Positions 16,395 through 16,574 of a stretch of DNA of 34,611 bases are shown here, piece by piece; position 1 is the first letter of the stretch, and every line of letters starts with the position of its first letter. The stretch comes from a virus. The notes beneath the pieces were generated by a model, which did not search any database, had not been told where the DNA came from, and worked only from the letters and a program-made list of their open reading frames with translations. A program made the position numbers and the translations under genes. The stretch is taken from the UHGV virus genome UHGV-0165227. One strand, given 5' to 3'.

Positions 16395-16574
16395 TCAGGT
16401 TGAGGACTCTTTCGCGCTTTCAATCAGTGACTGCTTCAGCAATTCGAGTGTGCCAATCGCCTCGCATAAACTGATTTCACCATCGTAATCATGAATGACG
16501 CTTTCCAGCCTCTCGTATAGCTCTTGAGTAATTGGGAATTTCTTCTCCTTACCCAAATTGATTACGCGGCTCAC
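16395..16574 (-). CDS. Small hypothetical protein (59 aa, GTG start), not on the ORF track
   Basis: GGAG 8 nt upstream of GTG at 16574; open frame to TGA at 16397..16395; fills gap between upstream ORF and terS. Confidence 0.3.
   Translation of the reverse strand: MSRVINLGKEKKFPITQELYERLESVIHDYDGEISLCEAIGTLELLKQSLIESAKESST

Follow-up and report, generated by a model that had tools for sequence, protein, structure and literature searches.

A 59-codon gene between orf80 and the small terminase gene of a P22-like phage genome, and its relationship to orf59c of P22

Does the gap of about 200 bp in front of the small terminase gene (terS) of the virus genome UHGV-0165227 hold a gene, and if so, what might its product do? 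The window, by which we mean the whole stretch of 34,611 nucleotides that was analysed, had previously been read by sequence inspection, and this sequence-only reading proposed that the gap is filled by a GTG-initiated open reading frame (ORF) of 59 codons that escaped the list of ORFs through falling below its 60-aa cutoff. [quoted passage not shown]

The open reading frame and its setting

The features around the proposed gene are as follows.

16576..16818, minus strand: orf80, encoding an 80-aa DUF2560 protein (P22 orf80, HK620 hkbM, Sf6 gene 67; Pfam PF10834, E 5.5e-37; PHROG 571)
16581..16584, minus strand: GGAG, a Shine-Dalgarno-like motif within the last codons of orf80, with a 6-nt spacer to the GTG
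16395..16574, minus strand: the 59-aa ORF, a gene of the orf59c/hkbN family with 59 codons plus stop and a GTG start
16372..16394, minus strand: spacer of 23 nt from the orf59c stop to the terS ATG, near-identical in 84 loci and ending at a mosaic junction
15949..16371, minus strand: terS, a small terminase of Sf6 type, 140 aa from its probable start (Pfam PF20901, E 7.8e-45; PHROG 1482)

The proposed frame is borne out by the sequence and by the ORF list: it runs on the minus strand from GTG 16574-16572 to TGA 16397-16395 and has 59 sense codons (MSRVINLGKEKKFPITQELYERLESVIHDYDGEISLCEAIGTLELLKQSLIESAKESST). At its junction with orf80 the minus strand reads ...ACC GGA GCA TGA T GTG AGC CGC..., and a single base (16575) lies between the orf80 stop (TGA 16578-16576) and the GTG, as had been claimed. 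The GGAG that was placed 8 nt upstream is indeed present; its spacer to the GTG is 6 nt, and a distance of 8 nt roughly fits if taken from the middle of the motif. The motif reads GGAG in 80 of 84 related loci and GGAA in three, a conservation that is confounded by the coding constraint on orf80. Lowering the cutoff to 30 aa was enough for the frame to be listed, which makes the cutoff the sole cause of its absence, and the gap from orf80 to the listed terS ORF measures 198 nt, in line with the approximate figure given before.

The list starts terS at ATG 16377 (142 aa), a codon that some relatives lack, reading GATAAAT or GATTAAT instead, and terS is annotated at 423 nt in HK620 and by PGAP. 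The true start is therefore probably ATG 16371, giving a protein of 140 aa as in Sf6 gp1, and from this start the spacer after the orf59c stop is 23 nt. That the 59-aa protein might itself be a small terminase was considered and rejected: it matches no terS family in Pfam, PHROGs or NCBIfam, and PF20901 falls on the downstream 140-aa ORF.

The minus-strand gene order is lambda-type holin, endolysin, Rz with embedded Rz1, DUF2560 gene, 59-aa ORF, Sf6-type terS, a 470-aa terL and portal. The 601 bases around the 59-aa ORF share 91% identity with phages Kapi1 and HK620, 88% with Sf6 and P22 across the parts that align, and 99.8% with a prophage of E. coli DETEC-E601, identities from which we take the window to carry the late operon of a P22-like (Lederbergvirus) phage or prophage. 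The succession of DUF2560 gene, 59-aa gene and terS is the same in HK620, P22, Sf6, an E. coli prophage and the 84 loci. At the equivalent position P22 carries orf59c (NP_597915), HK620 carries hkbN (NP_112074) and Sf6 carries gene 68 (NP_958242, 63 aa); in RefSeq E. coli genomes, PGAP calls the gene as WP_000091989.1, a hypothetical protein. Judged by sequence and position, the 59-aa ORF is the orthologue of these three phage genes. It is thus no discovery but an already known gene: its annotation in P22, HK620 and Sf6 dates from the early 2000s, and PGAP calls it too; no mention of orf59c or hkbN was found in the literature searched. The protein matches PHROG 3546, a family listed as of unknown function, from end to end (residues 1-59 on profile positions 1-59 of 59, E 8.5e-43). 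Searches of Pfam, NCBIfam, PADLOC and PDB sequences, made with the protein and two family profiles, returned nothing significant.

Three further ORFs of the window are relevant to its annotation.

17308..17514, minus strand: Rz1-type lipoprotein ORF with a lipobox, nested in Rz in another frame, an arrangement shared by P22 and Sf6
17127..17279, minus strand: 50-aa ORF with a hydrophobic N-terminus, overlapping the 3' end of Rz, with a full-length match to PHROG 11822 (E 5.5e-38)
12411..14609, minus strand: portal ORF as listed, with a GTG start and a 70-nt overlap with terL

The 50-aa ORF corresponds to Sf6 gene 65 (PGAP WP_001139676.1) and likewise lies under the 60-aa cutoff. A single kilobase therefore holds two examples, this one and the 59-aa ORF, of real conserved phage genes that such a cutoff conceals. 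The portal listing is over-extended: the likely start is ATG 14537 (MAETLEK...; 708 aa), which sits 2 nt past the terL stop (TAA 14542-14540). Between the 50-aa gene and orf80, about 308 bp (16819..17126) contain no ORF on either strand that matches a PHROG. The equivalent place holds rha, orf25 and pid in P22, and hkbK and hkbL in HK620; in the window it includes a plus-strand terminator-like hairpin at 16957..16978. This interval may be the remnant of an accessory-gene slot.

Conservation of the frame and breadth of the family

Length says little here. The window contains 134 ORFs that reach 59 aa or more, compared with about 79 in mononucleotide shuffles, and since frames of this size are so abundant in both, the length of the 59-aa ORF is insignificant and it is the comparative evidence that counts. 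We compared 84 related loci, 80 of them from IMG/VR contigs, three from reference phages and one from an Escherichia genome contig. The sequence-only reading had beforehand staked the gene on conservation of its frame among relatives, and we found the frame open in all 84, with a GTG start and 59 aa in 81 loci, a GTG start and 63 aa in two, and an ATG start and 59 aa in one. The 60 distinct 180-nt sequences found at these loci vary at 20 first, 11 second and 30 third codon positions. Summed pairwise Nei-Gojobori counts give a pN/pS of 0.165 in the frame of the gene as against values of 0.61 (frame +1) and 2.9 (frame +2); the pairs include close relatives and are phylogenetically non-independent, the contrast between frames serving as an internal control. 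The adjoining orf80 has a pN/pS of 0.158. Many distant homologues align from their own Met1, an ATG, at the position of the GTG, which supports the GTG as the start codon. Taken with the full-length PHROG match and the annotations at the same position in P22, HK620, Sf6 and RefSeq E. coli, this conservation supports the proposal that a genuine small gene had been missed. We regard it as almost certain that the 59-aa ORF is a protein-coding gene; its frame is conserved and under frame-specific purifying selection.

The family extends well beyond these loci. Searched exhaustively with a profile, a set of 1.84 billion representative proteins yielded 209 cluster representatives at E ≤0.001, mostly of 50-65 aa, and all of 58 diverse members match PHROG 3546 and no other PHROG. 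A search by tblastn with two distant family members found P22-like phages only. Elsewhere the genes occupy quite different surroundings. In Providencia phage PSTCR7lys the homologue is in the nin region, between a replicative helicase and a YbcN-like protein, RusA and Q, and in Erwinia phage AH03 it is among the first small genes. One distant member adjoins Rad52-like and Gp157-like recombination genes, another lies between a PD-(D/E)XK nuclease and an SNF2 helicase near a family A DNA polymerase, and others are found on short metagenomic contigs, amid runs of small genes of unknown function. At the examined sites outside P22-like phages, no terminase stands beside the gene. As read from these neighbourhoods, the placement outside P22-like phages is the pattern of a mobile accessory gene.

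Some members are longer, and their N-terminal extensions contain no Pfam domain. One protein of 107 aa (P0067) fuses the first 33 residues of the family to a P22-like portal fragment, a product that we attribute to a prophage deletion that took out terS, terL and the beginning of the gene for portal. The partnership with orf80 can also be dissolved: of 5426 complete E. coli genomes, 2551 match the 601-base region, mostly by way of its DUF2560 part, whereas only 163 have the DNA of the 59-aa gene itself, so that the two genes are not an obligate pair outside P22-like prophages.

Expression, predicted structure and possible role

From 15900 to 17400 the minus strand showed neither a sigma-70-like promoter nor an intrinsic terminator, no promoter-like or terminator-like site on that strand parts the 59-aa gene from the lysis genes, and the region of the ORF has no Rfam match. 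RNA structure around the terS start is no better than that of shuffled sequence (z = -0.30). The same results led us to reject a reading of the locus as an RNA or regulatory element; together they leave the gene, most simply, as part of the late transcript. The gene would then be transcribed with the late genes, and ribosomes finishing orf80 would reinitiate, or load at the GGAG, to translate it. The overlap of the GGAG-GTG site with the end of orf80 is an arrangement that favours such translational coupling, as far as can be read from the sequence.

The protein is predicted to have a flexible, conserved N-terminal tail (residues 1-13) followed by a helical hairpin (14-29 and 36-58). The best AlphaFold model, built with 58 diverse sequences, has a pLDDT of 89.4 (86.8-89.4 over five models) and shows a coil tail and two helices. 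The best-kept residues of the family are E18 (90%), Y30, G32, S35, G41 (100%), L43, E44 and K47 (91%). Its members are acidic: their net charge averages -4.2, and 56 of 58 are negative and one is positive.

Our preferred explanation is that orf59c is a genuine, late-expressed gene for a small acidic cytoplasmic protein, which would bind a partner through the helical hairpin and the conserved tail, and whose accessory function is tied to no terminase type and is probably not needed for plaques to form. As a whole we give this a probability of about 0.55. Its parts differ in strength. It appears likely that the gene is accessory and not terminase-specific. That its product acts by binding a protein, rather than DNA, is a tentative suggestion to which we give somewhat less than even odds, and which is suggested by the charge and the absence of DNA-binding signatures. 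Against the preferred explanation, the strict site right before terS in every P22-like phage could mean a packaging-related role instead of linkage.

The first rival holds that the protein is a dimeric ribbon-helix-helix (RHH) DNA binder of the Arc/CopG/TraM-N kind, for example a regulator of the late operon or a DNA-recognition accessory beside terS. A resemblance to this fold was seen in a weaker, lower-confidence AlphaFold monomer model; the higher-confidence model is not RHH-like. No RHH Pfam family matches the window protein at E ≤0.1, one of 58 family members matches 56B_RHH (E 0.18), and searches of PDB sequence profiles for an RHH link came back empty. RHH proteins make polar or basic major-groove contacts from an N-terminal strand. 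Here the candidate strand has the consensus K-x-F-P-x-E-x-E-L, in which 50% of members have Glu at position 16 and 90% have it at position 18; the strand that should contact DNA thus carries Glu. We consider the RHH reading, drawn from monomer-only models, a lead that failed to hold up, and a DNA-binding role of this kind unlikely.

A second rival makes the protein an anti-defence or host-takeover factor, that is, a small acidic protein, encoded by a mobile accessory gene, that would inhibit a host protein. The family is small, acidic, widespread and phage-only, its position differs between phage groups, and distant phages carry it in early arrays of small genes, the usual place of such inhibitors. 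In P22-like phages, however, the late-operon site would make it a late product, which is unusual for takeover, and libraries of anti-defence and defence proteins gave no match, with PADLOC at chance level only (E 0.011). This rival overlaps the preferred explanation, of which it is a more specific version, and in that specific form we find it quite unlikely.

A third rival makes the protein a dedicated cofactor of headful packaging, contacting TerS, TerL or portal and tuning the initiation of packaging. The gene keeps an invariant site 23 nt upstream of terS in the 84 P22-like loci, where it is crowded together with terS and terL into what would be one translational unit. Nucleotide homology among these loci, however, stops sharply at the terS start (about 16371, minus strand), and the identical arrangement of orf80, orf59c and 23-nt spacer precedes three unrelated types of terS.

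P22 type, beginning MAAPKGNRFW...: about 40 loci
Sf6 type, beginning MATEPKAGRP...: about 30 loci
Third type, beginning MATGKKIGRP...: 3 loci

A protein that is >90% identical in front of terminases recognising different pac sites is unlikely to be a partner for terS specificity. Moreover, it has no similarity to terminase, portal or head families in Pfam, PHROGs or NCBIfam. A family that reaches well beyond P22-like phages, is acidic, stands elsewhere in early, nin and replication regions far from terminases and is independent of terminase type argues against a dedicated packaging role, which we hold to be improbable.

More speculatively, the gene neighbourhoods would allow the family to be a widespread helical-hairpin module that binds and modulates a DNA-handling machine, whether of the host (a nuclease or defence protein) or of the phage (its replication or packaging proteins). 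We treat this as a long shot; if true, the gene would have become fixed at the head of the P22-like packaging genes since its product protects or prepares concatemeric DNA as packaging begins. Finally, that the frame is non-functional, either a chance ORF or a translated spacer acting only in cis to bring ribosomes to terS, draws on the frequency of ORFs this long, the GTG start and a spacing close enough for coupling, but is very improbable given amino-acid selection in this frame equal to that on the neighbouring gene, the retention of G41, K47 and E18 by 209 divergent representatives across unrelated contexts, and RNA at the terS start that has no unusual structure for coupling to unfold.

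Comparison with known systems

With RHH proteins (the Arc/MetJ/CopG superfamily and the N-terminal domain of F-like TraM) the 59-aa protein has no sequence-profile link; it is acidic rather than basic and has an invariant Gly in the middle of helix 2. Its closest known counterparts are P22 Orf59c, HK620 HkbN and the product of Sf6 gene 68, to which it has mostly 88-98% amino-acid identity, with few substitutions, confined to residues 2-6 and the C-terminal tail. Orf59c and HkbN have 59 aa as here, whereas the Sf6 protein has 63 aa and a different C-terminal tail. All three phages share with the window the GTG start, the placement 1 nt after the DUF2560 gene and the 23-nt spacer to terS. The downstream terS is of Sf6 type in the window and of P22 type in P22.

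In its genetic character, the 59-aa gene resembles the accessory genes of the nin and late regions of lambdoid phages (P22 orf25, pid and orf80, and the nin genes), which are short, tightly packed and mosaic. The P22 genes orf25, pid and orf80, neighbours of orf59c, are dispensable: P22 in which all three were exchanged for a resistance cassette is viable, orf25 and orf80 are stated to be unnecessary for lysogeny or lytic growth, and the reported deletions end at orf80, short of orf59c (PMC11016777; bioRxiv 10.1101/2023.08.15.553423). In evolved Sf6, selected deletions were in the nin region only (PMC5630979). Unlike typical morons, the 59-aa gene is without a promoter or terminator of its own, and unlike the lambdoid accessory genes, it is almost universally kept at one fixed position in P22-like phages.
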